Translations under genes and position numbers: made by a program
Assembly: GCF_048403405.1 (NCBI RefSeq)
Contig: NZ_CP183129.1
Direction: 5' to 3' (one strand)
DNA: 64,000 nucleotides
Source of the DNA: Escherichia coli
Lineage (GTDB): Bacteria > Pseudomonadota > Gammaproteobacteria > Enterobacterales > Enterobacteriaceae
Part shown: one piece after another, positions 38,100 through 59,366 of the stretch
Layout: every line of letters begins with the position of its first letter
Numbering within the stretch: position 1 is the stretch's first letter
Notes under the pieces: generated by a model
The model's input: the letters and a program-made list of their open reading frames with translations, nothing else
Databases searched by the model: none
Told to the model about the DNA's origin: nothing

Positions 38100-38496
38100 G
38101 TGTTCCCCGCGCCAGCGGGGATAAACCGAATACGCAACAGTGTTTTTATTGACAACACCGGTGTTCCCCGCGCCAGCGGGGATAAACCGGCAACGCCAGT
38201 AAATCAGACCAACGGCGCTGGGTGTTCCCCGCGCCAGCGGGGATAAACCGCGTTGTTTTGCCGGGTCGGGTGAATATATCGTAGTGTTCCCCGCGCCAGC
38301 GGGGATAAACCGGCCAGATTTCCAGTTCACTGGTCTTCGCGGCAAGTGTTCCCCGCGCCAGCGGGGATAAACCGAATGAGAGCTGACAGGTGTATGTCAT
38401 CAGTACGTGTTCCCCGCACCAGCGGGGATAAACCGTAATATTAGACTAATGTTTTTTTGTTGAGTTCGTGTTCCCCGCGCCAGCGGGGAACTCCCA
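38100..38496 (+). CRISPR. CRISPR array (CRISPR I, cas-adjacent): 7 repeats, 6 spacers (32-33 nt)
   Basis: Repeat GTGTTCCCCGCGCCAGCGGGGATAAACCG at 38100, 38161, 38222, 38284, 38346, 38407 (one G-to-A change) and a truncated terminal repeat at 38468 (GTGTTCCCCGCGCCAGCGGGGAACTCCCA). Confidence 0.97.
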
Positions 38497-42142: not shown

Positions 42143-42747
42143 TGGCGCTGCATGACGAAAACGTCGTCTGGCATAGCCATCCGGTCACTGTGCAACAACG
42201 CGAGCTACACCACGGTCATCGTGGTGTAGTGCTGTGGTTTACCGGCCTCTCCGGGTCCGGTAAATCAACGGTCGCCGGGGCGCTGGAGGAGGCATTACAT
42301 AAACTCGGCGTCAGTACGTATCTGCTGGATGGCGACAATGTTCGCTACGGATTATGCAGCGATCTCGGTTTTAGCGATGCCGATCGTAAAGAGAATATCC
42401 GTCGCGTCGGTGAAGTGGCGAATTTGATGGTTGAAGCCGGACTGGTAGTGCTGACCGCATTTATCTCGCCACACCGCGCCGAACGCCAGATGGTTCGCGA
42501 ACGCGTAGGAGAAGGGCGCTTTATCGAAGTGTTTGTCGATACGCCGCTGGCGATTTGCGAAGCCCGCGATCCAAAAGGCTTATATAAGAAAGCGCGTGCC
42601 GGTGAACTGCGCAACTTTACGGGAATAGATTCCGTTTACGAAGCGCCTGAATCGGCAGAAATTCATCTCAATGGTGAACAATTAGTAACAAATTTGGTAC
42701 AGCAATTATTAGATCTGTTGAGACAGAACGATATTATCAGATCCTGA
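42142..42747 (+). CDS. cysC: Adenylyl-sulfate kinase
   Basis: 201-aa ORF with P-loop GLSGSGKST. Confidence 0.96.
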
Positions 42748-42796
42748 GACACCACCGGGTTTCCATGCCCGGTTCGTCAAAGTAACAGGATCAAAT

Positions 42797-43120
42797 ATGC
42801 GTAATAGCCATAACATTACACTAACAAATAACGACAGCCTTACTGAGGATGAAGAAACCACATGGTCACTGCCTGGTGCCGTGGTCGGTTTTATCTCCTG
42901 GTTATTTGCGCTGGCGATGCCGATGTTGATTTATGGCTCTAACACGCTGTTCTTCTTTATCTACACCTGGCCTTTCTTTCTGGCGCTGATGCCCGTCGCG
43001 GTAGTGGTGGGGATTGCGCTGCATTCATTGATGGACGGAAAGCTACGCTACAGTATTGTTTTCACCCTGGTGACAGTAGGCATTATGTTTGGCGCACTGT
43101 TTATGTGGCTACTGGGCTAA
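42797..43120 (+). CDS. ygbE: Inner membrane protein YgbE
   Basis: 107-aa hydrophobic ORF in the conserved position between cysC and ftsB. Confidence 0.8.
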   Translation: MRNSHNITLTNNDSLTEDEETTWSLPGAVVGFISWLFALAMPMLIYGSNTLFFFIYTWPFFLALMPVAVVVGIALHSLMDGKLRYSIVFTLVTVGIMFGALFMWLLG

Positions 43121-43313
43121 TTTGTACTTTCCCGTCTCCTCTGTTCATAATTCAAACCGTAACTAATAATGAGATTATGTTCTGCACGCCCTGGGTATAC
43201 GTAACAATGGACAAATGTGGTACATTTGCCCGCGTTGTCGCGGTATCCCCAACAGAGGATGTAGAGTCGTCTTCGGATGCATGGGATGATGATGCCGTTT
43301 TTCAGGGGGCAGG

Positions 43314-43625
43314 ATGGGTAAACTAACGCTGCTGTTGCTGGCTATTCTGGTCTGGCTACAGTATTCGCTGTGGTTCGGTAAGAACGGTATACATGACTAT
43401 ACCCGCGTCAATGATGATGTGGCGGCACAGCAAGCTACAAACGCGAAACTTAAAGCGCGAAACGATCAACTTTTTGCCGAAATTGACGATCTCAATGGCG
43501 GCCAGGAGGCGCTCGAAGAGCGTGCGCGTAATGAACTCAGCATGACCAGGCCGGGCGAAACTTTTTATCGTCTGGTGCCTGACGCGTCGAAGCGCGCACA
43601 GTCTGCGGGGCAAAACAATCGATAA
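43314..43625 (+). CDS. ftsB: Cell division protein FtsB
   Basis: 103-aa ORF with N-terminal TM segment and coiled-coil region. Confidence 0.92.
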
Positions 43626-43643
43626 ATCAGCCCAGGAATTAAC

Positions 43644-44354
43644 ATGGCAACCACTCATTTGGATGTTTGCGCCGTGGTTCCGGCGGCCGGATTTGGCCGT
43701 CGAATGCAAACGGAATGTCCTAAGCAATATCTCTCAATCGGTAATCAAACCATTCTTGAACACTCGGTGCATGCGCTGCTGGCGCATCCCCGGGTGAAAC
43801 ATGTCGTCATTGCCATAAGTCCTGGCGATAGCCGTTTTGCACAACTTCCTCTGGCGAATCATCCGCAAATCACCGTTGTAGATGGCGGTGATGAGCGTGC
43901 CGATTCCGTGCTGGCAGGTCTGAAAGCCGCTGGCGACGCGCAGTGGGTATTGGTGCATGACGCCGCTCGTCCTTGTCTGCATCAGGATGACCTCGCGCGA
44001 TTGTTGGCGTTGAGCGAAACCAGCCGCACGGGGGGGATCCTCGCCGCACCAGTGCGCGATACTATGAAACGTGCCGAACCGGGCAAAAATGCCATTGCTC
44101 ATACCGTTGATCGCAACGGCTTATGGCACGCGCTGACGCCGCAATTTTTCCCTCGTGAGCTGTTACATGACTGTCTGACGCGCGCTCTAAATGAAGGCGC
44201 GACTATTACCGACGAAGCCTCGGCGCTGGAATATTGCGGATTTCATCCGCAGTTGGTCGAAGGCCGCGCGGATAACATTAAAGTCACGCGCCCGGAAGAT
44301 TTGGCACTGGCCGAGTTTTACCTCACCCGAACCATCCATCAGGAGAATACATAA
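43644..44354 (+). CDS. ispD: 2-C-methyl-D-erythritol 4-phosphate cytidylyltransferase
   Basis: 236-aa [25 protein letters not shown]... Confidence 0.95.
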
Positions 44355-44833
44355 TGCGAATTGGACACGGTTTTGACGTACACGCCTTTGGCGGTGAAGG
44401 CCCAATTATCATTGGTGGCGTACGCATTCCTTACGAAAAAGGATTGCTGGCGCATTCTGATGGCGACGTGGCGCTCCATGCGTTGACCGATGCATTGCTT
44501 GGCGCGGCGGCGCTGGGGGATATCGGCAAGCTGTTCCCGGATACCGATCCGGCATTTAAAGGTGCCGACAGCCGCGAGCTGCTACGCGAAGCCTGGCGTC
44601 GTATTCAGGCGAAGGGTTATACCCTGGGCAACGTCGATGTCACTATCATCGCTCAGGCACCGAAGATGTTGCCGCACATTCCACAAATGCGCGTGTTTAT
44701 TGCCGAAGATCTCGGCTGCCATATGGATGATGTTAACGTGAAAGCCACTACTACGGAAAAACTGGGATTTACCGGACGTGGGGAAGGGATTGCCTGTGAA
44801 GCGGTGGCGCTACTCATTAAGGCAACAAAATGA
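44354..44833 (+). CDS. ispF: 2-C-methyl-D-erythritol 2,4-cyclodiphosphate synthase
   Basis: 159-aa [17 protein letters not shown]... Confidence 0.96.
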
Positions 44834-45859
44834 TTGAGTTTGATAATCTCACTTACCTCCACGGTAAACCGCAAGGCACCGGGCTGCTGAAAGCCAATCC
44901 GGAAGACTTTGTGGTGGTGGAAGATTTGGGCTTTGAGCCTGATGGTGAAGGTGAGCATATTCTGGTTAGAATCCTCAAAAACGGCTGCAATACTCGTTTT
45001 GTGGCGGATGCACTGGCGAAATTCCTGAAAATTCATGCCCGTGAAGTCAGCTTCGCTGGGCAAAAAGACAAACATGCTGTTACGGAACAGTGGTTATGCG
45101 CTCGCGTGCCGGGCAAGGAAATGCCCGATCTGAGCGCCTTTCAACTGGAAGGCTGCCAGGTGCTGGAGTATGCGCGGCACAAGCGCAAGCTGCGTTTAGG
45201 CGCGCTGAAAGGTAACGCCTTTACCTTGGTACTACGCGAAGTGAGCAATCGCGATGACGTTGAACAACGTCTGATCGATATTTGCGTAAAAGGTGTACCG
45301 AACTACTTCGGTGCCCAACGTTTTGGGATTGGCGGTAGCAACTTGCAGGGCGCGCTGCGCTGGGCGCAAACCAATACTCCGGTGCGCGATCGCAATAAAC
45401 GGAGTTTTTGGTTGTCGGCAGCCCGCAGTGCGTTGTTTAATCAGATTGTTGCTGAGCGCCTCAAAAAAGCAGACGTTAATCAAGTTGTTGACGGCGATGC
45501 GCTACAATTAGCCGGACGTGGTAGCTGGTTTGTCGCAACCACCGAAGAACTGGCGGAATTACAGCGTCGCGTCAACGATAAAGAGCTAATGATAACCGCC
45601 GCATTGCCGGGCAGTGGCGAATGGGGAACTCAGCGTGAAGCGTTGGCATTCGAACAAGCAGCTGTCGCCGCAGAAACTGAATTACAAGCCTTACTGGTGC
45701 GCGAAAAAGTTGAAGCCGCGCGCAGAGCGATGCTGCTGTATCCGCAACAATTAAGCTGGAACTGGTGGGATGACGTCACCGTAGAAATCCGTTTCTGGCT
45801 TCCGGCGGGAAGTTTTGCAACCAGCGTTGTCAGGGAACTTATCAACACAACAGGTGATT

Positions 45860-45879
<20 letters not shown>
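44830..45879 (+). CDS. truD: tRNA pseudouridine13 synthase TruD
   Basis: 349-aa ORF overlapping the ispF stop. Confidence 0.93.
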
Positions 45880-47241
<1,362 letters not shown>

Positions 47242-47380
47242 AACGTGAGGAAATACCTGGATTTTTCCTGGTTATTTTGCCGCAGGTCAGCGTATCGTGA
47301 ACATCTTTTCCAGTGTTCAGTATGGTGCCTTGCACGGTAATTATGTCACTGGTTATTAACCAATTTTTCCTGGGGGATAA

Positions 47381-48520
47381 ATGAGCGCGGGAAGCCCAAA
47401 ATTCACCGTTCGCCGCATTGCGGCTTTGTCACTGGTTTCGCTATGGCTGGCAGGCTGTTCTGACACTTCAAATCCACCGGCACCGGTCAGCTCCGTTAAT
47501 GGCAATGCGCCTGCAAATACCAATTCTGGTATGTTGATTACGCCGCCGCCGAAAATGGGAACGACGTCTACAGCGCAGCAACCGCAAATTCAGCCGGTAC
47601 AGCAGCCACAAATTCAGGCTACTCAACAACCGCAAATCCAGCCAGTACAGCCAGTAGCTCAGCAGCCGGTACAGATGGAAAACGGACGCATCGTCTACAA
47701 CCGTCAGTATGGGAACATTCCGAAAGGCAGTTATAGCGGCAGTACCTATACCGTGAAAAAAGGCGACACACTTTTCTATATCGCCTGGATTACTGGCAAC
47801 GATTTCCGTGACCTTGCTCAGCGCAACAATATTCAGGCACCATACGCGCTGAACGTCGGTCAGACCTTACAGGTGGGTAATGCTTCCGGTACGCCAATCA
47901 CTGGCGGAAATGCCATTACCCAGGCCGACGCAGCAGAGCAAGGAGTTGTGATCAAGCCTGCACAAAATTCCACCGTTGCTGTTGCGTCGCAACCGACAAT
48001 TACGTATTCTGAGTCTTCGGGTGAACAGAGTGCTAACAAAATGTTGCCGAACAACAAGCCAACTGCGACCACGGTCACAGCGCCTGTAACGGTACCAACA
48101 GCAAGCACAACCGAGCCGACTGTCAGCAGTACATCAACCAGTACGCCTATCTCCACCTGGCGCTGGCCGACTGAGGGCAAAGTGATCGAAACCTTTGGCG
48201 CTTCTGAGGGGGGCAACAAGGGGATTGATATCGCAGGCAGCAAAGGACAGGCAATTATCGCGACCGCAGATGGCCGCGTTGTTTATGCCGGTAACGCGCT
48301 GCGCGGCTACGGTAATCTGATTATCATCAAACATAATGATGATTACCTGAGTGCCTACGCCCATAACGACACAATGCTGGTCCGGGAACAACAAGAAGTG
48401 AAGGCGGGGCAAAAAATAGCAACCATGGGTAGCACCGGAACCAGTTCAACACGCTTGCATTTTGAAATTCGTTACAAGGGGAAATCCGTAAACCCGCTGC
48501 GTTATTTGCCGCAGCGATAA
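47381..48520 (+). CDS. nlpD: Murein hydrolase activator lipoprotein NlpD (LysM + M23-like)
   Basis: 379-aa ORF with lipobox LAGC, Q/P-rich repeats, LysM and C-terminal M23-like domain. Confidence 0.94.
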
Positions 48521-48582
48521 ATCGGCGGAACCAGGCTTTTGCTTGAATGTTCCGTCAAGGGATCACGGGTAGGAGCCACCTT

Positions 48583-49575
48583 ATGAGTCAGAATACGCTG
48601 AAAGTTCATGATTTAAATGAAGATGCGGAATTTGATGAGAACGGAGTTGAGGTTTTTGACGAAAAGGCCTTAGTAGAAGAGGAACCCAGTGATAACGATT
48701 TGGCCGAAGAGGAACTGTTATCGCAGGGAGCCACACAGCGTGTGCTGGACGCGACTCAGCTTTACCTTGGTGAGATTGGTTATTCACCACTGTTAACGGC
48801 CGAAGAAGAAGTTTATTTTGCGCGTCGCGCACTGCGTGGAGATGTTGCCTCCCGCCGCCGGATGATCGAGAGTAACTTGCGTCTGGTGGTAAAAATTGCC
48901 CGCCGTTATGGCAATCGTGGTCTGGCGTTGCTGGACCTGATCGAAGAGGGCAACCTGGGGCTGATCCGCGCGGTAGAGAAGTTTGACCCGGAACGTGGTT
49001 TCCGCTTCTCAACATACGCAACCTGGTGGATTCGCCAGACGATCGAACGGGCGATTATGAACCAAACCCGTACTATTCGTTTGCCTATTCACATCGTAAA
49101 GGAGCTGAACGTTTACCTGCGAACCGCACGCGAGTTGTCCCATAAACTGGACCACGAACCAAGTGCGGAAGAGATCGCAGAGCAACTGGATAAGCCAGTT
49201 GATGACGTCAGCCGTATGCTTCGTCTTAACGAGCGCATTACCTCGGTAGACACCCCGCTGGGTGGTGATTCCGAAAAAGCGTTGCTGGACATCCTGGCCG
49301 ATGAAAAAGAGAACGGTCCGGAAGATACCACGCAAGATGACGATATGAAGCAGAGCATCGTCAAATGGCTGTTCGAGCTGAACGCCAAACAGCGTGAAGT
49401 ACTGGCACGTCGATTCGGTTTGCTGGGGTACGAAGCGGCAACATTGGAAGATGTAGGTCGTGAAATTGGCCTCACCCGTGAACGTGTTCGCCAGATTCAG
49501 GTTGAAGGCCTGCGCCGTTTGCGCGAAATCCTGCAAACGCAGGGGCTGAATATCGAAGCGCTGTTCCGCGAGTAA
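48583..49575 (+). CDS. rpoS: RNA polymerase sigma factor RpoS (sigma-38)
   Basis: Start at ATG 48583 ([17 protein letters not shown]...) with AGGAG RBS; ORF-track start 48547 is an upstream extension. Confidence 0.97.
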
Positions 49576-49593
49576 GTAAGCATCTGTCAGAAA

Positions 49594-49627
49594 GGCCAGT
49601 CTCAAGCGAGGCTGGCCTTTTTCTTTT
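49594..49627. terminator. rpoS rho-independent terminator (likely bidirectional)
   Basis: GGCCAGTCTC-AAGC-GAGGCTGGCC stem followed by TTTTTCTTTT; a REP-like sequence follows at about 49631-49694. Confidence 0.8.
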
Positions 49628-49694
49628 GGTTGGGGAGCCGGTGTGTTTGTGGGCTGGATAAGCCGCAATAGCGTCTCATCCGGCAATTTGCACC

Positions 49695-50102
49695 CTATGT
49701 GTTCATCATCTTGCGCACTAGCTGCATAAACAGCTCCTGCTCTTCTCCACTCAAACGCCCCAAAAATTCCTCATCCACGCTGTCACCTATCGGTATCGCC
49801 GCAGCAAGTATCTTTTCGCCTTCGGCAGTCAGCCAGACAAAGCGTCGCCGCTTGTCAGCGGCGTCATGTTCACGTCTGACTAAGCCACGATTTTCCATTC
49901 TTGCCAACATTTCTGCCAGCGTTGCTTTGGTGCTGACGGCTGCTTCCATCAGTGCCACCTGTTCGATACCAGGTTTATCAGCAATGGCGCGCATCACCGC
50001 GTACTGTGGTTTGGTCAGATCAGGTAACTCGTGCTGCCAGCGGGCCGTGTGTTGCTGAAAAAGCTGTCGTAACTGATGGAACGCTTTATTTCGTAACGCC
50101 AT
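49695..50102 (-). CDS. MarR/SlyA-family transcriptional regulator
   Basis: 135-aa ORF with winged-helix MarR pattern; divergent from the decarboxylase genes. Confidence 0.8.
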   Translation of the reverse strand: MALRNKAFHQLRQLFQQHTARWQHELPDLTKPQYAVMRAIADKPGIEQVALMEAAVSTKATLAEMLARMENRGLVRREHDAADKRRRFVWLTAEGEKILAAAIPIGDSVDEEFLGRLSGEEQELFMQLVRKMMNT

Positions 50103-50218
50103 GTAAACTCCGGGCTAATTCTCTGTCGCTATCATAGCGGTTTTTCAGTGACGAAGAAGATGTTGTTACTTTTCAATCCTTGCCGCTGTGGAAATGAAGG
50201 AGTATGTTAATAATAACG

Positions 50219-50230
50219 TTCGTATACGAA
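50219..50230. promoter_or_regulatory. Perfect 12-bp palindrome TTCGTATACGAA, candidate MarR-type operator
   Basis: Lies 19 nt upstream of the UbiX-like ATG (50249) in the divergent intergenic region. Confidence 0.45.
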
Positions 50231-50248
50231 CAATTAAGAGAGTAAGCA

Positions 50249-50842
50249 ATGAAACTGATCGTCGGGATGACAGGGGCTACCGGTGCGCCTCTTGGTGTGG
50301 CATTACTGCAAGCGCTGCGGGAGATGCCGAATGTCGAGACTCATCTGGTGATGTCGAAGTGGGCGAAAACCACTATTGAACTGGAAACGCCTTACAGCGC
50401 TCGCGATGTTGCCGCCCTCGCAGACTTCAGCCATAACCCGGCGGATCAGGCGGCGACTATCTCTTCCGGCTCCTTTCGTACCGACGGCATGATCGTTATT
50501 CCATGCAGTATGAAAACGCTCGCCGGTATCCGCGCTGGTTACGCCGATGGCCTGGTGGGGCGCGCGGCGGACGTCGTGCTCAAAGAAGGCCGCAAACTGG
50601 TGCTGGTGCCGCGTGAAATGCCGCTTAGCACAATCCATCTCGAAAATATGCTCGCACTTTCGCGCATGGGCGTGGCGATGGTGCCGCCGATGCCTGCCTT
50701 TTATAACCATCCCGAAACGGTAGATGACATTGTCCACCACGTGGTAGCCCGCGTGCTGGATCAATTTGGCCTCGAACATCCTCACGCCAGGCGCTGGCAA
50801 GGATTGCCGCAGGCCCGGAATTTTTCTCAGGAGAATGAATAA
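50249..50842 (+). CDS. ecdB: UbiX/Pad1-family flavin prenyltransferase (EcdB/VdcB/KpdB-like)
   Basis: 197-aa ORF MKLIVGMTGATGAPLGVALLQALR... typical UbiX N-terminus. Confidence 0.88.
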   Translation: MKLIVGMTGATGAPLGVALLQALREMPNVETHLVMSKWAKTTIELETPYSARDVAALADFSHNPADQAATISSGSFRTDGMIVIPCSMKTLAGIRAGYADGLVGRAADVVLKEGRKLVLVPREMPLSTIHLENMLALSRMGVAMVPPMPAFYNHPETVDDIVHHVVARVLDQFGLEHPHARRWQGLPQARNFSQENE

Positions 50843-52269
50843 TGGCATTTGATGATTTACGCAGCTTTTTACAGGCGCTTGATGACCACGGCCAGTTACT
50901 GAAAATCAGCGAAGAGGTGAACGCGGAACCGGATCTGGCAGCCGCAGCCAACGCCACCGGGCGTATCGGCGACGGCGCGCCCGCGCTTTGGTTTGATAAT
51001 ATTCGCGGCTTTATCGATGCCCGCGTGGCAATGAACACCATCGGTTCCTGGCAGAACCACGCGATTTCCCTCGGCCTGCCGCCAAACACCCCGGTTAAAA
51101 AACAGATTGATGAGTTTATCCGCCGCTGGGATAACTTCCCCATTACCCCGGAGCGCCGCGCCAATCCAGCCTGGGCGCAGAACACCGTCGATGGCGACGA
51201 GATCAACCTGTTCGATATTCTGCCGCTGTTTCGTTTAAACGACGGTGATGGCGGTTTCTATCTCGATAAAGCGTGCGTGGTTTCCCGCGATCCGCTCGAC
51301 CCGGATAACTTCGGCAAGCAGAACGTCGGCATCTACCGCATGGAAGTGAAGGGCAAACGTAAGCTCGGCCTGCAACCGGTGCCGATGCACGATATCGCTC
51401 TGCATCTGCATAAAGCGGAAGAACGCGGTGAAGATCTGCCGATTGCCATCACCCTGGGTAACGATCCGAACATCACCCTGATGGGCGCCACGCCGCTGAA
51501 ATACGATCAGTCTGAGTACGAAATGGCGGGCGCGCTGCGCGAAAGCCCGTACCCGATCGCCACCGCCCCGCTGACCGGTTTTGATGTGCCGTGGGGCTCG
51601 GAAGTGATCCTCGAAGGGGTTATCGAAAGTCGTAAACGTGAGATTGAAGGGCCGTTCGGTGAGTTTACCGGCCACTACTCCGGCGGGCGTAACATGACCG
51701 TGGTGCGTATCGATAAAGTCTCTTACCGTACCAAACCGATTTTCGAATCGCTCTATCTTGGTATGCCGTGGACCGAAATCGACTACCTGATGGGGCCTGC
51801 CACCTGCGTGCCGCTGTATCAGCAACTGAAAGCCGAGTTCCCGGAAGTGCAGGCGGTAAACGCCATGTACACCCACGGCCTGTTGGCGATTATCTCCACC
51901 AAAAAACGCTACGGCGGCTTTGCCCGCGCGGTGGGCCTGCGTGCAATGACCACGCCGCACGGTCTGGGCTACGTGAAGATGGTGATTATGGTCGATGAAG
52001 ACGTTGATCCGTTCAACCTGCCGCAGGTGATGTGGGCGCTCTCCTCGAAAGTGAACCCGGCAGGCGACCTGGTGCAGTTGCCAAATATGTCCGTGCTGGA
52101 ACTCGACCCTGGCTCAAGCCCGGCGGGGATCACCGACAAGCTGATTATCGACGCCACCACGCCTGTCGCCCCGGACAACCGTGGTCACTACAGCCAGCCG
52201 GTGGTGGATTTACCGGAAACCAAAGCCTGGGCTGAAAAACTGACCGCTATGCTGGCCGCACGTAAATAA
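50842..52269 (+). CDS. ecdC: UbiD-family (prFMN-dependent) decarboxylase, phenolic-acid decarboxylase C-subunit-like
   Basis: 475-aa UbiD-like ORF translationally coupled to the UbiX-like gene. Confidence 0.85.
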   Translation: MAFDDLRSFLQALDDHGQLLKISEEVNAEPDLAAAANATGRIGDGAPALWFDNIRGFIDARVAMNTIGSWQNHAISLGLPPNTPVKKQIDEFIRRWDNFPITPERRANPAWAQNTVDGDEINLFDILPLFRLNDGDGGFYLDKACVVSRDPLDPDNFGKQNVGIYRMEVKGKRKLGLQPVPMHDIALHLHKAEERGEDLPIAITLGNDPNITLMGATPLKYDQSEYEMAGALRESPYPIATAPLTGFDVPWGSEVILEGVIESRKREIEGPFGEFTGHYSGGRNMTVVRIDKVSYRTKPIFESLYLGMPWTEIDYLMGPATCVPLYQQLKAEFPEVQAVNAMYTHGLLAIISTKKRYGGFARAVGLRAMTTPHGLGYVKMVIMVDEDVDPFNLPQVMWALSSKVNPAGDLVQLPNMSVLELDPGSSPAGITDKLIIDATTPVAPDNRGHYSQPVVDLPETKAWAEKLTAMLAARK

Positions 52270-52279
52270 GGAGAACAAG

Positions 52280-52516
52280 ATGATTTGTCCACGTTGTGCT
52301 GATGAACAGATTGAAGTGATGGCGAAATCGCCGGTAAAAGATGTCTGGACAGTCTATCAGTGCCAGCATTGCCTCTATACCTGGCGCGATACCGAACCGC
52401 TTCGCCGCACCAGCCGCGAACATTACCCGGAAGCGTTTCGTATGACGCAGAAAGACATTGATGACGCGCCAATGGTGCCGAGCATTCCGCCGCTGCTGGC
52501 GGAAGGTAAGCGCTAA
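52280..52516 (+). CDS. ecdD: Small zinc-ribbon subunit of phenolic-acid decarboxylase (YclD/VdcD-like)
   Basis: 78-aa ORF with CPRC...CQHC motif directly after the UbiD-like gene. Confidence 0.75.
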   Translation: MICPRCADEQIEVMAKSPVKDVWTVYQCQHCLYTWRDTEPLRRTSREHYPEAFRMTQKDIDDAPMVPSIPPLLAEGKR

Positions 52517-52550
52517 ATAAAAGGTCCGATGCCCATCGGACCTTTTTATT
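52517..52550. terminator. Bidirectional terminator between ecdD and ygbN
   Basis: AAAAGGTCCGAT-GCCC-ATCGGACCTTTTTATT. Confidence 0.8.
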
Positions 52551-52554
52551 AAGG

Positions 52555-53919
52555 TCAAATTACCGCCCATACGCACCAGGTAATTAAGAATCCGGTAAAA
52601 CCGAGAATGGTCGTTAACACTGTCCAGGTTTTCAGACCGTCTGCTACCGACAACCCCAGATATTTGGTCACAATCCAGAACCCTGAGTCATTAATATGTG
52701 ACGCGCCAAGCCCACCAAAGCAGGCTGCCAGCGTCACCAATACGCACTGAATCGGATTCAATCCCATCACCGCTTCTGAGAGTAACCCGCCGGTTGTCAG
52801 GATTGCTACGGTTGCTGACCCCTGCGATGCACGCAGCGCCAGTGAAATAATAAATGCGGCTGGTAACAGAGGCAGGTCAATCATTTGTAGCATGTTGGCA
52901 AGGGCTTTGCCGACGCCCGATTCCACCAGCACTTTGCCAAATACCCCTCCAGCACCAGTAACCAAAATCACTACCGCCGCGGTGGGAAGGGCTGAGCCCA
53001 TAATGTCGCTGGTGTGTTGTAAGCTCCAGCCGCGACGTAAAGCCAATAACCAGAATGCCAGCACCAGCGCAATCATTAGAGCTACCATTGGTGAGCCGAT
53101 CAGCTGTAGCGTACCAAGCAGGGGATGCGAAGGCGGCATCAGTGTTGCGGAAACCGTACCCGCCATGATAATCGCGATAGGAATAACAATTAGCGAGGTG
53201 ACCAGCGCGACGCCCGGTGGATTTATTTTATCGCTTAATTTTGTCGCGCCTTCCTCACTGGCCGGAGCCAGTTGCATCTGTTCCAGTACTTCCACCGACA
53301 TCGCATATTGGCACTTATTGATTATTTTCGCTGCAAAGTAGCCAACAATCCCTACGGGAATAGAAATCGCAATACCGATGATGGTTAGCCAGCCGATGTC
53401 TGCGTGGAGTAACCCCGCTGCGGCGACAGGGCCTGGATGCGGCGGTACCGCCACATGAACAGTTAGCATGATTCCAGCGACAGGCAGGCCAAATTTGAGT
53501 GGCGATATTTTGGCAACCTTGGCAAAACCGTAAATGATTGGCGCAAGAATAATAAAGCCGACATCAAAGAAGACGGGAATACCGAGGAAGAACGCTGCCA
53601 GAGTCAGCGCAGCGATAGTTCGTTTGTCACCTAACTTGCGACTGAAATAATTAGCCAGTGACTCTGCACCACCAGAGTGTTCGATCATACGCCCCAGCAT
53701 AGCGCCCAGACCAATAATAATAGTGACGGAACCAAGCACACCGCCCATCCCGGCGATCATCACTTTACCCACTTCGCCCGCCGGTATACCCGCCGCAAGT
53801 GCGACTAACAGGCTGACGAGGAGCAGAGCAACGAATGGTTGTACCTTTGCCTTGATGACCAGCAGCAACAGCATGATTACGCCAGTTAACGCAATGCATA
53901 ACAATGTAATTGTGGACAT
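52555..53919 (-). CDS. ygbN: GntP-family permease YgbN
   Basis: 454-aa polytopic membrane ORF. Confidence 0.88.
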   Translation of the reverse strand: MSTITLLCIALTGVIMLLLLVIKAKVQPFVALLLVSLLVALAAGIPAGEVGKVMIAGMGGVLGSVTIIIGLGAMLGRMIEHSGGAESLANYFSRKLGDKRTIAALTLAAFFLGIPVFFDVGFIILAPIIYGFAKVAKISPLKFGLPVAGIMLTVHVAVPPHPGPVAAAGLLHADIGWLTIIGIAISIPVGIVGYFAAKIINKCQYAMSVEVLEQMQLAPASEEGATKLSDKINPPGVALVTSLIVIPIAIIMAGTVSATLMPPSHPLLGTLQLIGSPMVALMIALVLAFWLLALRRGWSLQHTSDIMGSALPTAAVVILVTGAGGVFGKVLVESGVGKALANMLQMIDLPLLPAAFIISLALRASQGSATVAILTTGGLLSEAVMGLNPIQCVLVTLAACFGGLGASHINDSGFWIVTKYLGLSVADGLKTWTVLTTILGFTGFLITWCVWAVI

Positions 53920-54007
53920 GGGAAACCCTGTCTGAAAGTTATAGTTAACCTACCCCATCCGTAGATGGGGGGATGTATGGGTACGTTGTAATTAGGGATT
54001 TAACGAA

Positions 54008-54784
54008 TTAGCGCCAGGCGTCAAACCAGCCCAGCCCTTCTTCGGTGAGGCCACGAGGTTTATATTCACAACCGATCCAGCCCTGATATCCCACCTCATC
54101 GAACAGGCGGAACAGCCACGGATAGTTGATTTCTCCATCGTCCGGTTCATGTCGATCAGGTAGTCCGGCAATTTGTACGTGCGCATATTTCCCGGCGTAG
54201 TCGCGGATTAAATGCGTCAGGTTGCCATCTACTTTTTGCGCATGAAAAGTATCTAGTTGAATAAACACGTTATCTCGCGCAACTTCTTCAACAATAGCCA
54301 GTGCCTGATACTGGCTGGAGAAGAGATAATGAGGCTTAACGCCGGGGCTGAGTGCTTCAACTAATATTCGCTTGCCGTGTGGCGCAAAGCGGTCGGCAGC
54401 GTAGCGGAGATTATCGATAAATACTGCCCTGTACCGTTCAGCATCTTCGCCAGCGGGCACGACGCCTGCCATCACATGGACTTGTTCACAATTGAGCGCC
54501 AATGCATATTCCAGTGCCAGGTCGATGTCTGCGTGTGCTTCGTGCTCACGTCCGGGAAGGGCGGATAATCCCCATTCCCCCGCATTAATATCTCCGGGAG
54601 CGGTATTGAACAGCGCCAGTGTCAGATGGTTTTGCTCCAGTTGCTTTTGGATTTGCAGGGTGGAGTAGTCATAGGGAAACAGAAATTCCACAGCATCGAA
54701 CCCGGCTTTTCGCGCTGCGGCGAAGCGTTCAATAAAAGGCACTTCGGTGAACATCATGGATAAATTAGCTGCAAAACGAGGCAT
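54008..54784 (-). CDS. ygbM: Xylose-isomerase-like TIM-barrel isomerase YgbM (2-oxo-tetronate isomerase OtnI)
   Basis: 258-aa ORF, hydroxypyruvate-isomerase-like. Confidence 0.85.
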
Positions 54785-54788
54785 TGCA

Positions 54789-55427
54789 TTAACTCCTTAA
54801 TTCCGCAATTTCACCTGCGGTCAGATAACGGATCGGGCGGTCACCGAGAATAAAAATCAGCTTTGCCGTTTCCTCCAGCTCTTCCATATTGTTGGCGGCT
54901 TCTTGCAGGCTTTCACCGCAAACCACTGGGCCATGATTTGCCAGTAAAAAAGCCTGATTGTCTGCTGCCAGTTCCGCCAGATCCTGTGCGATGCGTTTAT
55001 CGCCCGGTCGGTAATAAGGCACCAGCGGGACATTTCCCATCCGCATCACCACGTATGGTGTGAACGGACGAATAACGTTGCTGCTGTCCAGCCCTTGCAG
55101 GCAGGAAAGCGCCGTCGACCATGTGCTGTGCAAATGCACCACCGCTTTACAGCGCGGATTGTTGCGATACAGCGCCAGATGAAAGAGCACCTCTTTCGAG
55201 GGTTTGTCACCACTTAACCATTCGCCATCCGCGGCGACTTTGGAAAGCCGCTGCGGATCGAGATTGCCCAGGCATGAACCTGTCGGTGTCGCCAGTAAAT
55301 TCCCGTCAGGTAAAAGCAGCGACAAATTGCCAGCCGAACCGGTTGCATAGCCGCGCTGAAAGAATGAACTGGCAATCCGCGTCATCTCCTCTCGCAAAGA
55401 CTGCTCTACTTTTGCGAAATCGCTCAT
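54789..55427 (-). CDS. ygbL: Class II aldolase/adducin-family protein YgbL (OtnC-like decarboxylase)
   Basis: 212-aa ORF of the class II aldolase fold. Confidence 0.85.
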
Positions 55428-56686
55428 GATAAAAACTCTCTTTGGGCTCGTGAAAAAAAGGCTTCATCACCGAAGTTGCCAGATTTAAGGGCGAGTGAGA
55501 CAGGTTTATCCAGTGCGTTTACCCACGGCACGCCGGGAGAAATGGTTGGGCCAATATGAAACCCTTTTATTCCCAGGCTCTGTGTGACTACGCCGGAGGT
55601 CTCACCGCCTGCGACAATAAAGCGTGTCACGCCTTCCGCTGCTAACCGCGCCGCTAGTTGAGAAAACAGTGTTTCTACTGCCTGACTGGCTTTATGTGCA
55701 CCGTATTGCTGTTGAATTGCTGCCAATGCGTCAGTGCTGGCAGTGGCAAAAACCAGTGGAGCAAGTACACTTTCCTGGCCCAGAACCCACTCTGCCAGTT
55801 CGTGTGCATAAGCGGCCAGAGTTTCAATTGAGAGGCAGCGTGCCACATCAACTTCACGGGCTGGTGCAATTTGACGGTAATGTGCTACCTGGCAGTTGGT
55901 CATTTGAGAGCATGAACCGGAGAGCACTACGCCGCGCCCAGCGAGCGGATGCCCTGCTTTGCGAGCCTGGTTACCGTTTTCTTGCGCCCACTGCCGGGCA
56001 AGGCCAATCGCCAGACCAGAACCGCCCGTTACCAGTGGGGTATCGCGCAAGGCTTCTCCCTGAATTTCCAGATGGTGTTCGGTCAGCGCATCAAGCACCG
56101 CGTAGCGGTAGCCCTCTTGCTGTAAGCGAGCCAGCTCTTGACGAACGGCATCCACACCTTGTTCGAAAACATGTGCCGAAACGACGCCGCAGCGCCCTGT
56201 GGATTGCGCTTCAACCAGACGGGGAAGATAGCTGTCGGTCATGGGATTTACCGGGTGATGGCGCATCCCGGATTCGGCCAGCAGTTGATTCATTACGAAC
56301 AAATACCCCTGATAAACCGTACGTCCGTTGACCGGCAGGGCCGGAGAGAAGACCGTAAACGGCGTGTCGAGAGCATCCATTAATGCATCGGTAACCGGGC
56401 CGATATTACCTTTCGCCGAACTGTCGAAAGTAGAGCAGTATTTGAAATAGATCTGTTTGCAACCTTGCTGTTGCAACCAGCTCAGTGCCGCCAGCGATTG
56501 CTGTGTGGCTTCAACCACCGGACAGGAACGCGTTTTCAGGCTGATCACCAGTGCGTCGATTGCTTCCGGCATTTTACCTGTTGGAACACCGTTAATTTGT
56601 ACCGTTGGTAGACCGTTTTCCACCAGAAAACTGGCGATATCCGTCGCGCCGGTAAAATCATCGGCGATAACGCCAATCTTGATCAT
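55424..56686 (-). CDS. ygbK: Four-carbon acid-sugar kinase YgbK (OtnK, DUF1537 family)
   Basis: 420-aa ORF MIKIGVIADDFTGATDIASFL... Confidence 0.85.
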   Translation of the reverse strand: MIKIGVIADDFTGATDIASFLVENGLPTVQINGVPTGKMPEAIDALVISLKTRSCPVVEATQQSLAALSWLQQQGCKQIYFKYCSTFDSSAKGNIGPVTDALMDALDTPFTVFSPALPVNGRTVYQGYLFVMNQLLAESGMRHHPVNPMTDSYLPRLVEAQSTGRCGVVSAHVFEQGVDAVRQELARLQQEGYRYAVLDALTEHHLEIQGEALRDTPLVTGGSGLAIGLARQWAQENGNQARKAGHPLAGRGVVLSGSCSQMTNCQVAHYRQIAPAREVDVARCLSIETLAAYAHELAEWVLGQESVLAPLVFATASTDALAAIQQQYGAHKASQAVETLFSQLAARLAAEGVTRFIVAGGETSGVVTQSLGIKGFHIGPTISPGVPWVNALDKPVSLALKSGNFGDEAFFSRAQREFLS

Positions 56687-57591
56687 GATTTCGCTCCCGG
56701 TAGAGTGATGCCAGAGAAAATCTTGATAACTGCGCTATCGTCTTCTTTCCCGTAACCCGCGTTACTGGCGCTGGTGAACATATTCAATGCTGTTGAGGCC
56801 AATGGCAGCGGGAAGTGCAGGGCTTTGGCTGTATCGGCAACCAGACCAAGATCCTTAACAAAAATATCGACGGCTGAATGCGGGGTGTAATCGCCATCCA
56901 CCACATGACGCATCCGGTTTTCGAACATCCAGGAATTTCCGGCGGCATTGGTCACGACGTCATACATCACATCCAGCGGGATCCCCGCACGGGCTGCAAG
57001 TGCCATCGCTTCGGCTCCGGCAGCAATATGTACGCCCGCTAACAACTGGTGAATAATTTTTACGGTCGAACCTAGTCCCGGTTCTGCACCTATGCGATAA
57101 ACTTTTCCGGCAACGGCTTCCAGCACGGGTGCCAGTCGTTCAAAGGCAATATCGCTACCGGAGGCCATGACAGTCATTTCACCGTTAGCGGCTTTTACTG
57201 CACCACCAGAAACTGGCGCATCCAGCATTTCCAGATCGAATCCAGCCAGAGCGGTAGCAATTTCTTGCGCATCAGCACTAGCGATAGTGGAAGAAACCAT
57301 TACTGCCGTACCGGGTTTCAGATGTTGTGCAACGCCTGTTTCACCAAACAGCACCTGTTTAACCTGGGCCGCATTGACCACCAGCACCAGCAGAGCGTCC
57401 AGTTTTTCGGCAAACGTCGCGGCGTTATCAGAAACCCCGCAAGCACCTGCCTCTTTCAACGTAGCGCAGGCATTGCTGTTCAGGTCTGCGCCCCAGGTAG
57501 AAAGACCTGCGCGGACACATGACAGTGCTGCTCCCATTCCCATTGACCCTAAGCCAACGATACCGACATGAAACTCAGATCCCGTTTTCAT
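56683..57591 (-). CDS. ygbJ: NAD-dependent 3-hydroxyisobutyrate-dehydrogenase-family enzyme YgbJ (L-threonate dehydrogenase-like)
   Basis: 302-aa ORF with Rossmann motif VGIVGLGSMGMG. Confidence 0.88.
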   Translation of the reverse strand: MKTGSEFHVGIVGLGSMGMGAALSCVRAGLSTWGADLNSNACATLKEAGACGVSDNAATFAEKLDALLVLVVNAAQVKQVLFGETGVAQHLKPGTAVMVSSTIASADAQEIATALAGFDLEMLDAPVSGGAVKAANGEMTVMASGSDIAFERLAPVLEAVAGKVYRIGAEPGLGSTVKIIHQLLAGVHIAAGAEAMALAARAGIPLDVMYDVVTNAAGNSWMFENRMRHVVDGDYTPHSAVDIFVKDLGLVADTAKALHFPLPLASTALNMFTSASNAGYGKEDDSAVIKIFSGITLPGAKS

Positions 57592-57786
57592 CTGCTCTCC
57601 TTGTTAATTTAAGTGATGTTTTGTTTGATATTGTGAATATAGGCGCTGGAAGATAACGATATGGTGAGCTGATTCACAAAAATTAACATTGTGTGTTATT
57701 TTATGTGAACTAAGCGTTAGTTGCGCCGCGCACGTTTCGCAGGCAAATAGCGTAGAATGTCAGCAGGACAAAGGAAGGAGCAAAAG

Positions 57787-58554
57787 TTGATACCCGTAGA
57801 GCGTCGCCAAATCATCCTTGAGATGGTAGCTGAAAAAGGCATTGTCAGTATTGCTGAACTAACGGACAGAATGAATGTGTCACATATGACCATTCGTCGG
57901 GATTTACAAAAACTGGAGCAGCAGGGAGCCGTTGTGCTGGTGTCCGGAGGCGTCCAGTCTCCGGGACGCGTGGCGCATGAACCTTCTCATCAGGTAAAAA
58001 CTGCGCTGGCAATGACGCAAAAAGCGGCTATTGGCAAGCTGGCGGCAAGTCTTGTTCAGCCGGGAAGTTGTATCTATCTGGATGCGGGAACGACCACGCT
58101 AGCGATAGCACAGCATCTGATTCACATGGAGTCACTGACTGTGGTCACAAACGATTTCGTTATTGCGGACTACTTGCTCGACAACAGTAATTGCACAATT
58201 ATTCACACTGGCGGTGCAGTGTGTCGGGAAAACCGTTCCTGTGTCGGGGAAGCCGCTGCGACCATGCTGCGCAGCCTGATGATTGATCAGGCTTTTATTT
58301 CTGCATCGTCATGGAGTGTGCGGGGGATTTCTACGCCAGCGGAAGATAAAGTCACGGTGAAACGGGCGATTGCCAGTGCCAGCCGCCAGCGAGTTTTGGT
58401 CTGTGATGCGACGAAATATGGTCAGGTGGCGACATGGCTGGCGTTACCATTAAGCGAGTTTGATCAGATTATTACAGACGACGGTTTGCCGGAGAGTGCC
58501 AGTCGCGCGCTGGCGAAGCAGGATCTCTCTTTGCTGGTAGCGAAAAATGAATAA
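57787..58554 (+). CDS. ygbI: DeoR-family transcriptional regulator YgbI
   Basis: N-terminal HTH and C-terminal sugar-phosphate sensor domain; start provisionally at TTG 57787 (ORF track 57757). Confidence 0.8.
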   Translation: MIPVERRQIILEMVAEKGIVSIAELTDRMNVSHMTIRRDLQKLEQQGAVVLVSGGVQSPGRVAHEPSHQVKTALAMTQKAAIGKLAASLVQPGSCIYLDAGTTTLAIAQHLIHMESLTVVTNDFVIADYLLDNSNCTIIHTGGAVCRENRSCVGEAAATMLRSLMIDQAFISASSWSVRGISTPAEDKVTVKRAIASASRQRVLVCDATKYGQVATWLALPLSEFDQIITDDGLPESASRALAKQDLSLLVAKNE

Positions 58555-58577
58555 TGGCCTGCAATAACACCGGGTTA

Positions 58578-58603
58578 CTCATGCTTCACAGAAGAAGCAT
58601 GAG
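58578..58603. terminator. Hairpin between convergent ygbI and pphB
   Basis: CTCATGCTTC-ACAGAA-GAAGCATGAG, 10-bp perfect stem. Confidence 0.6.
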
Positions 58604-58604
58604 A

Positions 58605-59261
58605 CTACTTTATTTTATAAAATGACAGCCGCCCGCTTTTCGGCGATCCGGTATCAATATAAATCTGGTTTGCGAGCGTCTGAATGTTATCAAACATCAT
58701 ATGTCCAAATATAAAATAATCAGCGCCGTTTATTTGTTGTAACTCGCCATTAAGCGATTTCTGCACACGATCAACAGGCCAGAGTAGTTCTCTCTCCGCT
58801 ATTTCTTTGCCAAAGAGATATTCATTCCCCGGATAATCTGCATGTGCGATGACATATTTTATTATGTCGTTAGTGATTTCAATAATATGTGGAAGGCGAT
58901 GAAATTTCAGCAACAGATTTATTGCTTCTTGTTGTTCCGTCTCATTTAATTCAAAGAACCAGTCGCCGCCGCTGGCAAGCCACATATTTCCATCGCCAGT
59001 TTCGAATGCATCAAGCGCCATCGCTTCATGGTTGCCTTTAACCGATGTAAACCAGGGCTGGTTTAACAGGCGTAGTACGTTAAGACTCTCCGGCCCACGA
59101 TCAATATTATCGCCGACAGAAATAAGTAAGTCGGTTTCAGGGAAAAAAGAGAGTTGATGTAAGCGGGATTGTAATAATTGATAGTCACCATGAATATCAC
59201 CAACGGCCCATATATAACGATAGTGATGGGCATTAATTTTTTGATAGCGTGTAGATGGCAT
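58605..59261 (-). CDS. pphB: Serine/threonine protein phosphatase 2
   Basis: 218-aa calcineurin-like metallophosphoesterase (GDIHGD, GNHE motifs). Confidence 0.92.
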   Translation of the reverse strand: MPSTRYQKINAHHYRYIWAVGDIHGDYQLLQSRLHQLSFFPETDLLISVGDNIDRGPESLNVLRLLNQPWFTSVKGNHEAMALDAFETGDGNMWLASGGDWFFELNETEQQEAINLLLKFHRLPHIIEITNDIIKYVIAHADYPGNEYLFGKEIAERELLWPVDRVQKSLNGELQQINGADYFIFGHMMFDNIQTLANQIYIDTGSPKSGRLSFYKIK

Positions 59262-59332
59262 GGTTTTACCCTGTAAAATAAGATTTCCTATTATACAGGG
59301 TGTTTTTATTTGATTCGTCAGTTGTCGTTAAT

Positions 59333-59361
59333 ATTCCCGATAGCAAAAGACTATCGGGAAT
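59333..59361. terminator. Perfect 11-bp inverted repeat directly downstream of mutS
   Basis: ATTCCCGATAG-CAAAAGA-CTATCGGGAAT a few nt past the mutS stop. Confidence 0.5.
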
Positions 59362-59366
59362 TGTTA

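Follow-up and report, generated by a model that had tools for sequence, protein, structure and literature searches.

Background

The hosA(slyA)-pad1-yclC segment of the mutS-rpoS region was reportedly described in E. coli O157:H7/EPEC by Herbelin et al. in 2000. It spans about 2.9 kb and is flanked by rpoS and ygbN. The long form of the mutS-rpoS region is known as "pattern IV" (Ewers 2014, PMC4209514). Its regulator, HosA, is known from E. coli UMN026/EPEC (PDB 8AGA, 8PQ4). Roy & Ranjan 2016 reportedly found that the HAD operon and hosA itself are both repressed by HosA, and that 4-hydroxybenzoate (4-HBA) disrupts its DNA binding and induces the operon. The KD of HosA for 4-HBA is 4.7 uM, and the ligand freed the DNA in EMSA.

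Klebsiella pneumoniae KpdBCD and the Enterobacter cloacae 4-hydroxybenzoate decarboxylase (Lupa 2005; Matsui 2006) share the B-C-D operon, a divergent MarR gene, and the position beside rpoS. According to Lupa 2005, the Klebsiella KpdBCD cluster reportedly converted 4-hydroxybenzoate to phenol in E. coli lysate. In Sedimentibacter hydroxybenzoicus and Bacillus subtilis, VdcCD (BsdBCD, ShdBCD; PMC8379154, PDB 7AE4) pairs a UbiD-like C subunit with a zinc-ribbon D subunit in a C6D6 complex, and VdcC activity on 4-HBA and vanillate strictly requires VdcD.

The locus, its polymorphism, the regulator, the ligand, the operator, and the enzyme family have already been published (Herbelin 2000; Ewers 2014; Lupa 2005; Roy & Ranjan 2016). 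Here, we analyzed this locus in a 64,000-nucleotide stretch of an E. coli genome (NZ_CP183129.1), hereafter the window. The observation that started this work was correct, and the feature it described is an ordinary one.

The locus and its genes

In the list of open reading frames (ORFs), positions 49576-52554 fill precisely the space between the stop codon of rpoS and that of ygbN, with four intact ORFs inside. They are the chromosomal hosA-ecdBCD locus, in which a MarR regulator gene diverges from a B-C-D decarboxylase operon. The features are as follows.

48583-49575, plus strand: rpoS, left flank, outside the island (ORF; protein 100% identical to the annotated rpoS in locus L003)
49589-49622, plus strand: rpoS intrinsic terminator, left edge of the polymorphic segment (15-pair stem and T-run; inverted repeat I11)
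49652-49690, no strand: REP-like palindrome, located after the rpoS terminator and before the stop codon of hosA (GCTGGATAAGCCGCAATAGCGTCTCATCCGGCA, read straight off the sequence)
49695-50102, minus strand: hosA, 135 aa, MarR-family repressor sensing 4-hydroxybenzoate (132/135 identical to PDB 8AGA; function from the literature)
50129-50139, minus strand: putative hosA promoter -10 (conserved CTATCATAGCG, minus-strand reading TATGAT)
50180-50208, plus strand: putative ecdB promoter (-35 TTGCCG at 50180-50185, 17-nt spacer, -10 TATGTT at 50203-50208)
50218-50231, no strand: HosA operator, perfect 14-bp palindrome GTTCGTATACGAAC, equal to the published HosA site
50249-50842, plus strand: ecdB (pad1/kpdB/vdcB), 197 aa, UbiX-type flavin prenyltransferase making prFMN (NCBIfam VdcB; PDB 1SBZ)
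50842-52269, plus strand: ecdC (yclC/kpdC/vdcC), 475 aa, UbiD-family prFMN-dependent decarboxylase, catalytic subunit (NCBIfam VdcC; ShVdcC 7AE4)
52280-52516, plus strand: ecdD (kpdD/vdcD), 78 aa, zinc-ribbon activating subunit (NCBIfam VdcD; ShdD 7AE4_a; role from PMC8379154)
52514-52551, no strand: bidirectional terminator common to ecdD and ygbN, right edge of the polymorphic segment (18-nt inverted repeat I3; K-12 sequence identical)
52555-53919, minus strand: ygbN, GntP-family transporter, right flank, outside the island (NCBIfam NF007332, 824 bits vs. 524; annotated as ygbN in L001 and L003)

The locus also goes by the names slyA/hosA-pad1-yclC, kpdBCD, and hadBCD. The three decarboxylase genes are contiguous and co-oriented, as in a hadBCD-type operon: the ecdC start overlaps the ecdB stop codon (TAATG at 50840), and ecdC and ecdD are 10 nt apart. 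The genes are under strong purifying selection (dN/dS of about 0.02-0.09).

The window carries hosA-ecdBCD between rpoS and ygbN, followed by ygbM-ygbI, pphB, and mutS, which is pattern IV; this assignment combined the window ORFs, the annotation of L003 –its island is identical– and the definition in PMC4209514. Compared with the O157:H7/EPEC segment, the genes, their order, and their position are the same, and there is no difference in kind; the window holds a minority sequence allele.

A permissive Rfam search of 48000-54500 returned two sub-threshold matches, neither of them meaningful: ctRNA_p42d on the rpoS terminator hairpin, and the REP-derived naRNA4 on the REP-like element (49652-49718, minus strand, 25.4 bits; gathering score 59.5).

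Distribution and origin of the island

In K-12 MG1655, the stop codons of rpoS and ygbN are only 93 bp apart and all four genes are missing; the initial annotation had already stated this absence. That annotation also held the rpoS-mutS interval to be polymorphic among E. coli lineages, and the four main allelic states that we found agree with Ewers 2014. The island is not rare in E. coli: the full set of genes occurs in 2380 of 5426 complete genomes (44%), and the ecdD-ygbN junction appears as in the window in 1592 complete genomes.

The rpoS-adjacent cluster is ancestral in Enterobacteriaceae, and K-12 and its relatives deleted it cleanly between two terminators; it was not inserted in the window strain. 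We read the K-12 state as a deletion because the cluster adjoins rpoS in 51 of the 73 informative loci from related species, covering about 20 genera. K-12 keeps both terminators with only 9 bp between them, and at the rpoS terminator the sequence is in common with K-12 up to GGCCTTTT. The 9 bp at the deletion junction (CTGTGCACA) had no match in the island within one mismatch.

The initial annotation saw an old indel rather than an active mobile element, with no integrase, insertion sequence (IS), or direct repeats around it. That statement stands: we found no integrase or IS ORF in 46-56 kb, no direct repeats bracketing the island, and also no tRNA in 40000-64000, and all 5411 matching places in E. 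coli were chromosomal. Thus, the locus has none of the marks of a mobile genomic island (integrase/transposase, tRNA/att, direct repeats, plasmid copies). The indel itself can be given a direction, as a deletion in K-12 from an ancestral presence.

The best-surviving alternative, a horizontally acquired islet inserted beside rpoS in this lineage, is very unlikely. Composition and divergence speak for it: ecdB and ecdC have a GC content of 57.6-57.7% and a GC3 of 0.63-0.70, while the flanks stand at 52% and 0.50-0.56; between E. coli strains, divergence reaches 4-5% in the island, whereas the flanks are 99-100% identical; and this change coincides exactly with the two terminators that form the island edges. 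Moreover, Pseudocitrobacter matches the ecdC-ecdD part at 93-98% identity, and a bioRxiv preprint claims that hosA reached EPEC from Shigella. However, the same cluster adjoins rpoS across Enterobacteriaceae, the signatures of mobility listed above are missing, and the island never occurs on plasmids in E. coli. The 97.6% identity to S. dysenteriae is uninformative on transfer, since Shigella itself is E. coli. What the data agree with is that homologous recombination replaced alleles at an ancestral locus, rather than a de novo insertion.

The island may be a recombining allelic cassette and not a simple presence/absence indel, a reading to which we give somewhat less than even credence. Within E. 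coli, dS between island alleles is 0.10-0.29, compared with 0.01-0.05 in the neighboring genes of both flanks. The window allele is a minority one, with at least 99% identity in 26 of 2417 genomes, most of the others standing at about 95-97%. The ecdC-ecdD part belongs to one sequence pool with E. coli, a cryptic Escherichia lineage, and three Pseudocitrobacter species; hosA and ecdB lie outside this pool. The excess divergence confined to the island, together with the closeness of ecdC-ecdD to Pseudocitrobacter, is less well documented than the rest of the locus.

Decarboxylase subunits

The initial annotation named a MarR regulator, a UbiX-like protein, a UbiD-like protein, and a zinc-ribbon subunit; curated profile scores and matches to solved structures confirmed these identities, and all the VdcB, VdcC, and VdcD cut-offs were passed. 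EcdB scored 312.2 bits against the VdcB profile NF041206 (cut-off 290), with 257 vs. 188 for the UbiX subfamily, and it is identical to E. coli O157:H7 Pad1 (PDB 1SBZ) at 196 of 197 residues. EcdC reached 787.3 bits against the VdcC profile NF041204 (cut-off 650) over profile positions 2-466 of 467, and EcdD 121.2 bits against the VdcD profile NF041205 (cut-off 30).

At the structural level, EcdC aligned with ShVdcC (7AE4) across residues 3-471 (E=2e-159), and both the NVGIYR and the EGPFGEF motif are kept. In this alignment, N161-x-G-x-Y-R166 and E269-GPFG-E274 of EcdC are conserved, so the Glu-Arg-Glu triad and the metal/prFMN motif of UbiD enzymes are present. We take these motif residues to be equivalent to R173, E277, and E282 of Fdc1 (Payne et al. 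2015). EcdD matched ShdD (7AE4_a) at E=3e-11, and the cysteines of its two CxxC knuckles (C3, C6, C28, and C31) align with the zinc ligands of ShVdcD. Thus, the window proteins and ShVdcCD have the catalytic-loop motifs and all four cysteines in common. Despite this, ShVdcC is clearly more distant from EcdC than the enterobacterial orthologues are, and the D subunit even more so; the Klebsiella and Enterobacter EcdC orthologues are 96-97% identical.

Assignments to AroY, UbiD, phenylphosphate carboxylase, and BagN/FevL were rejected on curated profile scores. An AroY-type protocatechuate (3,4-dihydroxybenzoate) decarboxylase or a gallate decarboxylase is very improbable: the superfamily is in common, and Enterobacter B and D subunits –also named EcdB and EcdD– are reportedly used to boost AroY activity (PMC5779730), but the AroY structures 5O3M and 5NY5 matched EcdC at just E=1e-24 to 1e-27 and the ligand of the regulator is 4-HBA. 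EcdC may have some activity on protocatechuate. Least credible of all is a back-up UbiX/UbiD pair of the ubiquinone pathway acting as 4-hydroxy-3-polyprenylbenzoate decarboxylase: EcdB and EcdC do belong to the UbiX and UbiD superfamilies, and EcdB could cross-supply UbiD because its product prFMN is the same cofactor as that of UbiX, but EcdC scored only 173.7 bits against the UbiD equivalog NF008175 (cut-off 788), matched E. coli UbiD structures at E=1e-46, and comes with a VdcD partner and a 4-HBA-sensing repressor that the ubiquinone enzymes lack.

HosA and the control region

The VdcBCD-type operon of the window is accompanied by a 135-aa protein that a profile search placed in the MarR family. 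In B. subtilis, the regulator BsdA is of the LysR type and not of the MarR type. The closest solved structure to the window protein is PDB 8AGA, "Transcriptional regulator HosA", and the second closest is PcaV. Compared with UMN026/EPEC HosA, it carries three conservative substitutions (M52I, I98V, and G119A), and the operator sequence is identical. The Klebsiella/Enterobacter counterpart is just 72-81% identical (approximate values). In several Klebsiella/Enterobacter loci, an insert of 2.6 kb also separates rpoS from the regulator; in the one examined (L018), this insert contains LysR, MFS, and small-protein ORFs.

The operator precedes the ecdB start codon by 17 nt, and with its flanks (TAATAACGTTCGTATACGAACAATT) it equals the HosA-site oligo T_H (PMC6261655 supplement) read as its reverse complement. 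Its core, GTTCG-N4-CGAAC, was present with 0-2 mismatches in all 79 hosA-ecd intergenic regions examined; in most, it precedes the first decarboxylase gene by about 15-25 nt. A further operator-like site occurs in this intergenic region in several loci of Klebsiella, Enterobacter, Kluyvera, and Pseudocitrobacter.

The automatic promoter scan of the locus found no sigma-70 site at its threshold. We placed the putative ecdB promoter by cross-genus conservation instead: it agrees with the consensus at 8 of 12 positions, which is under the scan threshold, and its TTG and GTA..T positions are conserved across genera in the intergenic alignment. The operator sits downstream of these conserved -35 and -10 positions. 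When 13 intergenic regions of different genera were aligned, CTATCATAGCG was the sole conserved block on the hosA side, and it probably represents the hosA -10 element. The palindrome CGCTATCATAGCG at 50129-50141 had been considered as a second HosA operator; we dropped it in favor of the -10 element because it is conserved as the minus-strand TATGAT and is unrelated to GTTCG-N4-CGAAC.

Proposed function and meaning

Altogether, we are highly confident that the locus is a ligand-controlled, non-oxidative, reversible hydroxyarylic-acid decarboxylase system whose rpoS-side cluster is ancestral in Enterobacteriaceae and was lost in K-12 and its relatives. In the proposed mechanism, EcdB would prenylate FMN to prFMN, and EcdC would bind prFMN and decarboxylate 4-hydroxybenzoate to phenol and probably, by homology, vanillate to guaiacol. 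The zinc-ribbon protein EcdD would bind EcdC, whose activity would depend on it. HosA, divergently transcribed, would bind GTTCGTATACGAAC between the putative ecdB -10 and the ribosome-binding site and so repress both the ecdBCD operon and hosA, until 4-hydroxybenzoate frees it from the DNA.

The present analysis itself establishes the identities of the genes, the sequence of the operator, the distribution among strains, and the synteny. Repression, ligand, and enzyme activity are carried over from the literature on near-identical or homologous proteins. Likewise, a substrate range of 4-HBA, vanillate, and other phenolic acids is extrapolated from the Klebsiella, Bacillus, and Sedimentibacter enzymes, which are about 60-97% identical. 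The expectation that the substrate is a hydroxyaromatic acid probably holds, 4-hydroxybenzoate being both the published HosA ligand and a KpdBCD substrate. The HosA regulon may be wider than the ecdBCD operon, because HosA has reportedly also been linked to motility control in EPEC (Ferrandiz 2005).

HosA is already in use as a 4-hydroxybenzoate biosensor, and the hosA-ecdBCD locus can serve in practice for typing E. coli lineages. The mutS-rpoS region is known to be mosaic, and the sharp, island-limited divergence is a small addition to that picture. If the allelic cassette reading is true, it would mean either a long-kept polymorphism or a repeated import of decarboxylase genes into a fixed chromosomal site, across species and genus boundaries. 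This strain is probably able to turn 4-hydroxybenzoate –from parabens or plant phenolics– into phenol, which K-12 would be unable to do.

Gene content and protein identity

At the sequence level, the observation that four genes lie between rpoS and ygbN is real, and its initial interpretation was correct in every main point. The segment at 49576-52554 spans exactly from the rpoS stop (plus strand, ending at 49575) to the ygbN stop (minus strand, at 52555), and the ORF list gives four intact ORFs within it, set out here with a hairpin and an inverted repeat:

49589-49622, hairpin 3' of rpoS, 15-pair stem and T-run
49695-50102, minus strand, hosA, 135 aa, intact
50249-50842, plus strand, ecdB, 197 aa, intact
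50842-52269, plus strand, ecdC, 475 aa, intact
52280-52516, plus strand, ecdD, 78 aa, intact
52514-52551, 18-nt inverted repeat between ecdD and ygbN

Genes ecdB and ecdC share a single base, within TAATG, and 10 nt separate ecdC from ecdD. Long ORFs antisense to the G+C-rich ecdB and ecdC had no support and were taken as spurious. A REP-like palindromic element (49652-49690) separates the rpoS terminator from the stop codon of hosA, with a weak, sub-threshold Rfam match to naRNA4; in the B2 allele, another REP-like sequence occupies the corresponding place. Further upstream, some 11 kb from rpoS, lies a short CRISPR array of type I-E (38346-38489, repeat GTGTTCCCCGCGCCAGCGGGGATAAACCG), the counterpart of the cas1e-cas2e-CRISPR annotation in L003, a locus whose island is identical to this one.

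The products had been described as a MarR-type regulator with UbiX-like, UbiD-like and zinc-ribbon subunits. NCBIfam places the 135-aa protein in the MarR family and scores the others above the curated cut-offs for non-oxidative hydroxyarylic acid decarboxylase subunits B (312 bits, cut-off 290), C (787, cut-off 650), and D (121, cut-off 30). The regulator is identical to solved HosA at 132/135 positions (8AGA and six further entries), and subunit B to Pad1 of E. coli O157:H7 at 196/197 (1SBZ). Subunit C matches ShVdcC (7AE4) over residues 3-471 with E=2e-159, conserving NVGIYR and EGPFGEF, and subunit D matches ShdD with all four zinc-binding cysteines aligned (C3, C6, C28, C31). We rejected UbiD proper for the ecdC product (174 bits vs. 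a cut-off of 788), as well as phenylphosphate carboxylase and BagN/FevL, which scored below their NCBIfam cut-offs. Among solved structures, AroY-type protocatechuate decarboxylase is far more distant from subunit C (E=1e-24 to 1e-27).

Regulation and function

The divergent hosA-ecdB intergenic region is 146 bp long and contains a perfect palindrome, GTTCGTATACGAAC, at 50218-50231, with the ecdB ATG 17 nt downstream. The palindrome and its flanks are identical to the HosA-site oligonucleotide listed in the PMC6261655 supplement; that paper describes the HosA site of E. coli UMN026 as a 14-bp palindrome. The motif GTTCG-N4-CGAAC was present with 0-2 mismatches in all the hosA-ecd intergenic regions examined (79/79), mostly at a distance of about 15-25 nt on the 5' side of the first decarboxylase gene. 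Besides the operator, few positions were conserved in an alignment of 13 regions from different genera: TTG at 50180, GTA..T at 50202-50208, and CTATCATAGCG at 50129-50139. No promoter reached threshold in an automatic scan. From the conserved positions, we infer an ecdB promoter with -35 TTGCCG, a 17-nt spacer and -10 TATGTT, and CTATCATAGCG (TATGAT on the hosA strand) as the likely hosA -10 element. With the promoter placed there, the operator would fall between the -10 element of ecdB and its ribosome-binding site, which would suit repression.

An additional operator-like site, GATCGTATACGAAC, occurs about 73-76 nt 5' of ecdB in several loci of Pseudocitrobacter, Lelliottia, Kluyvera, Klebsiella and Enterobacter (L007, L010, L024, L040; also L018, L029, L039). 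It is absent from the E. coli intergenic region, which is shorter by about 24 bp.

HosA is described as a repressor of the hydroxyarylic acid decarboxylase operon and of its own gene, with 4-hydroxybenzoate (4-HBA) abolishing its DNA binding and inducing the operon (Roy & Ranjan 2016, as summarised in bioRxiv 10.1101/2024.04.24.590444). Its KD for 4-HBA is 4.7 uM, and in EMSA the DNA is freed from HosA by this ligand (PMC6261655). Lysate of E. coli expressing Klebsiella kpdBCD is cited as converting 4-hydroxybenzoate to phenol (Lupa 2005, cited in PMC6424909). The Sedimentibacter and Bacillus enzymes, whose substrates include 4-hydroxybenzoate and vanillate, form a C6D6 complex in which subunit D is strictly required and holds the loops with the catalytic Glu-Arg-Glu triad (PMC8379154). 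By analogy with this literature on ligand and homologues, the initially proposed hydroxyaromatic acid substrate is probably right. Moreover, dN/dS of about 0.02-0.09 in all four genes indicates strong purifying selection, which agrees with a functional system.

In some other species the regulator gene directly adjoins ecdC, without ecdB between (L045, L054, L055, L064, L066, L071, L075, L076, L078, L081, L084, L085); there, prFMN presumably comes from the housekeeping UbiX.

Allelic states in E. coli

At least 80% of the island is held by 2380 of 5426 complete E. coli genomes (44%), always on the chromosome, and 1592 of these 2380 have the ecdD-ygbN junction seen here. Among the others are an O157-like form (L004) that lacks ygbN-ygbI and has pphB directly next to ecdD, and a variant (L005) with one additional TPR gene. 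A further 1040 genomes have the B2-type replacement, which consists of two genes, one for a flavodoxin-family protein and one for an MBL-fold hydrolase (L002 6060-8135, E. coli 83972); the left junction is common with ours up to TTTTCTTTTGGT, and the ygbN 3' end and terminator are also replaced. The absence from K-12 stated initially was borne out: the site in MG1655 spans 93 bp and consists of two terminators, that of rpoS and the shared bidirectional one, with 9 bp (CTGTGCACA) between them. Both terminators are kept at this junction (L001 2545-2555). CTGTGCACA had no match in the island within one mismatch and is thus filler DNA.

Ewers et al. 2014 describe these states as four patterns, and the rpoS-mutS interval had been called polymorphic from the outset; ours is pattern IV, the EPEC-type long form. 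In EPEC, too, this 2.9-kb hosA-pad1-yclC segment follows rpoS (PMC5491219, citing Herbelin et al. 2000).

Insertion or deletion

Scanning one genome per species gave 80 loci with EcdC relatives (88-99% protein identity), 73 of them with enough flank. The cluster lies beside rpoS in 51/73. Of these 51, 34 have the arrangement seen here (rpoS-hosA distance 65-232 bp), 12 carry an insert of 0.4-2.7 kb between rpoS and hosA, and 5 have the cluster inverted, with ecdD facing the rpoS 3' end (Salmonella arizonae, diarizonae, and three Phytobacter species). The remaining 22/73 lack rpoS within 8 kb, and most are outside Enterobacteriaceae (Rahnella, Pantoea, Erwinia, Chimaeribacter, Vibrio, and others). 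Thus, the position beside rpoS is the ancestral one in Enterobacteriaceae, and K-12 has lost the cluster by deletion. Herbelin et al. reportedly reached the same conclusion on K-12.

An old indel rather than an active mobile element had been proposed, and we found no tRNA, integrase, IS or bracketing direct repeat at the island. Acquisition of hosA from Shigella, put forward in a preprint (bioRxiv 10.1101/2024.04.24.590444), is not supported by the synteny of rpoS and the cluster.

In Klebsiella oxytoca (L018 4244-6827), the 2.6-kb insert between rpoS and the hosA homologue encodes a LysR-type regulator, an MFS transporter and a 125-aa protein (ORFs listed for this locus alone); inserts of equal size occur in L020, L022, L024, L025, L042, L043, L047 and L063.

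Divergence and possible allele exchange

The island is a minority allele, with at least 99% identity in 26/2417 genomes and about 95-97% in most. Against another pattern-IV E. coli (L087), identity in 500-bp bins is 98.6-100% over 42076-49575, drops to 94.4-97.4% over 49576-52575, and returns to 98.8-100% for 3 kb (52576-55575). Compared with L087, L004 and a further strain (L009), the island is 94-97% identical and the flanks 99-100%, switching exactly at the island edges; dS is 0.10-0.29 within it vs. 0.01-0.05 in flanking genes. A second low-identity block covers pphB and the start of the mutS region (58576-60075; 92-94% vs. L087, 92-96% vs. L004), just after 56076-58575, which is 99-100% identical to L087.

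From about 50950 (50946-52544; ~100 bp into ecdC), ecdC-ecdD is about 92-98.5% identical in nucleotides to Pseudocitrobacter L007/L010, and 93-98% among E. coli alleles, Escherichia sp. E1V33 and the tested Pseudocitrobacter loci. For these Pseudocitrobacter loci, identity is only 63-86% over hosA and the beginning of ecdB, and 89% over rpoS. This suggests that the ecdCD segment was exchanged between genera, in either direction. The GC and codon comparison with the flanks, also proposed initially, gave GC3 of 0.70 in ecdC and 0.63 in ecdB vs. 0.50-0.56.

The gene content, polymorphism, regulation, ligand and enzymology of this locus were all already known; in a non-exhaustive literature search, we found no prior description of allele exchange at such resolution. 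Taken together, the divergence limited to the island, the Pseudocitrobacter ecdCD similarity and the raised GC3 suggest that alleles have been exchanged at one fixed position through homologous recombination, between genera as well, which fits the mosaic character known for the mutS-rpoS region.
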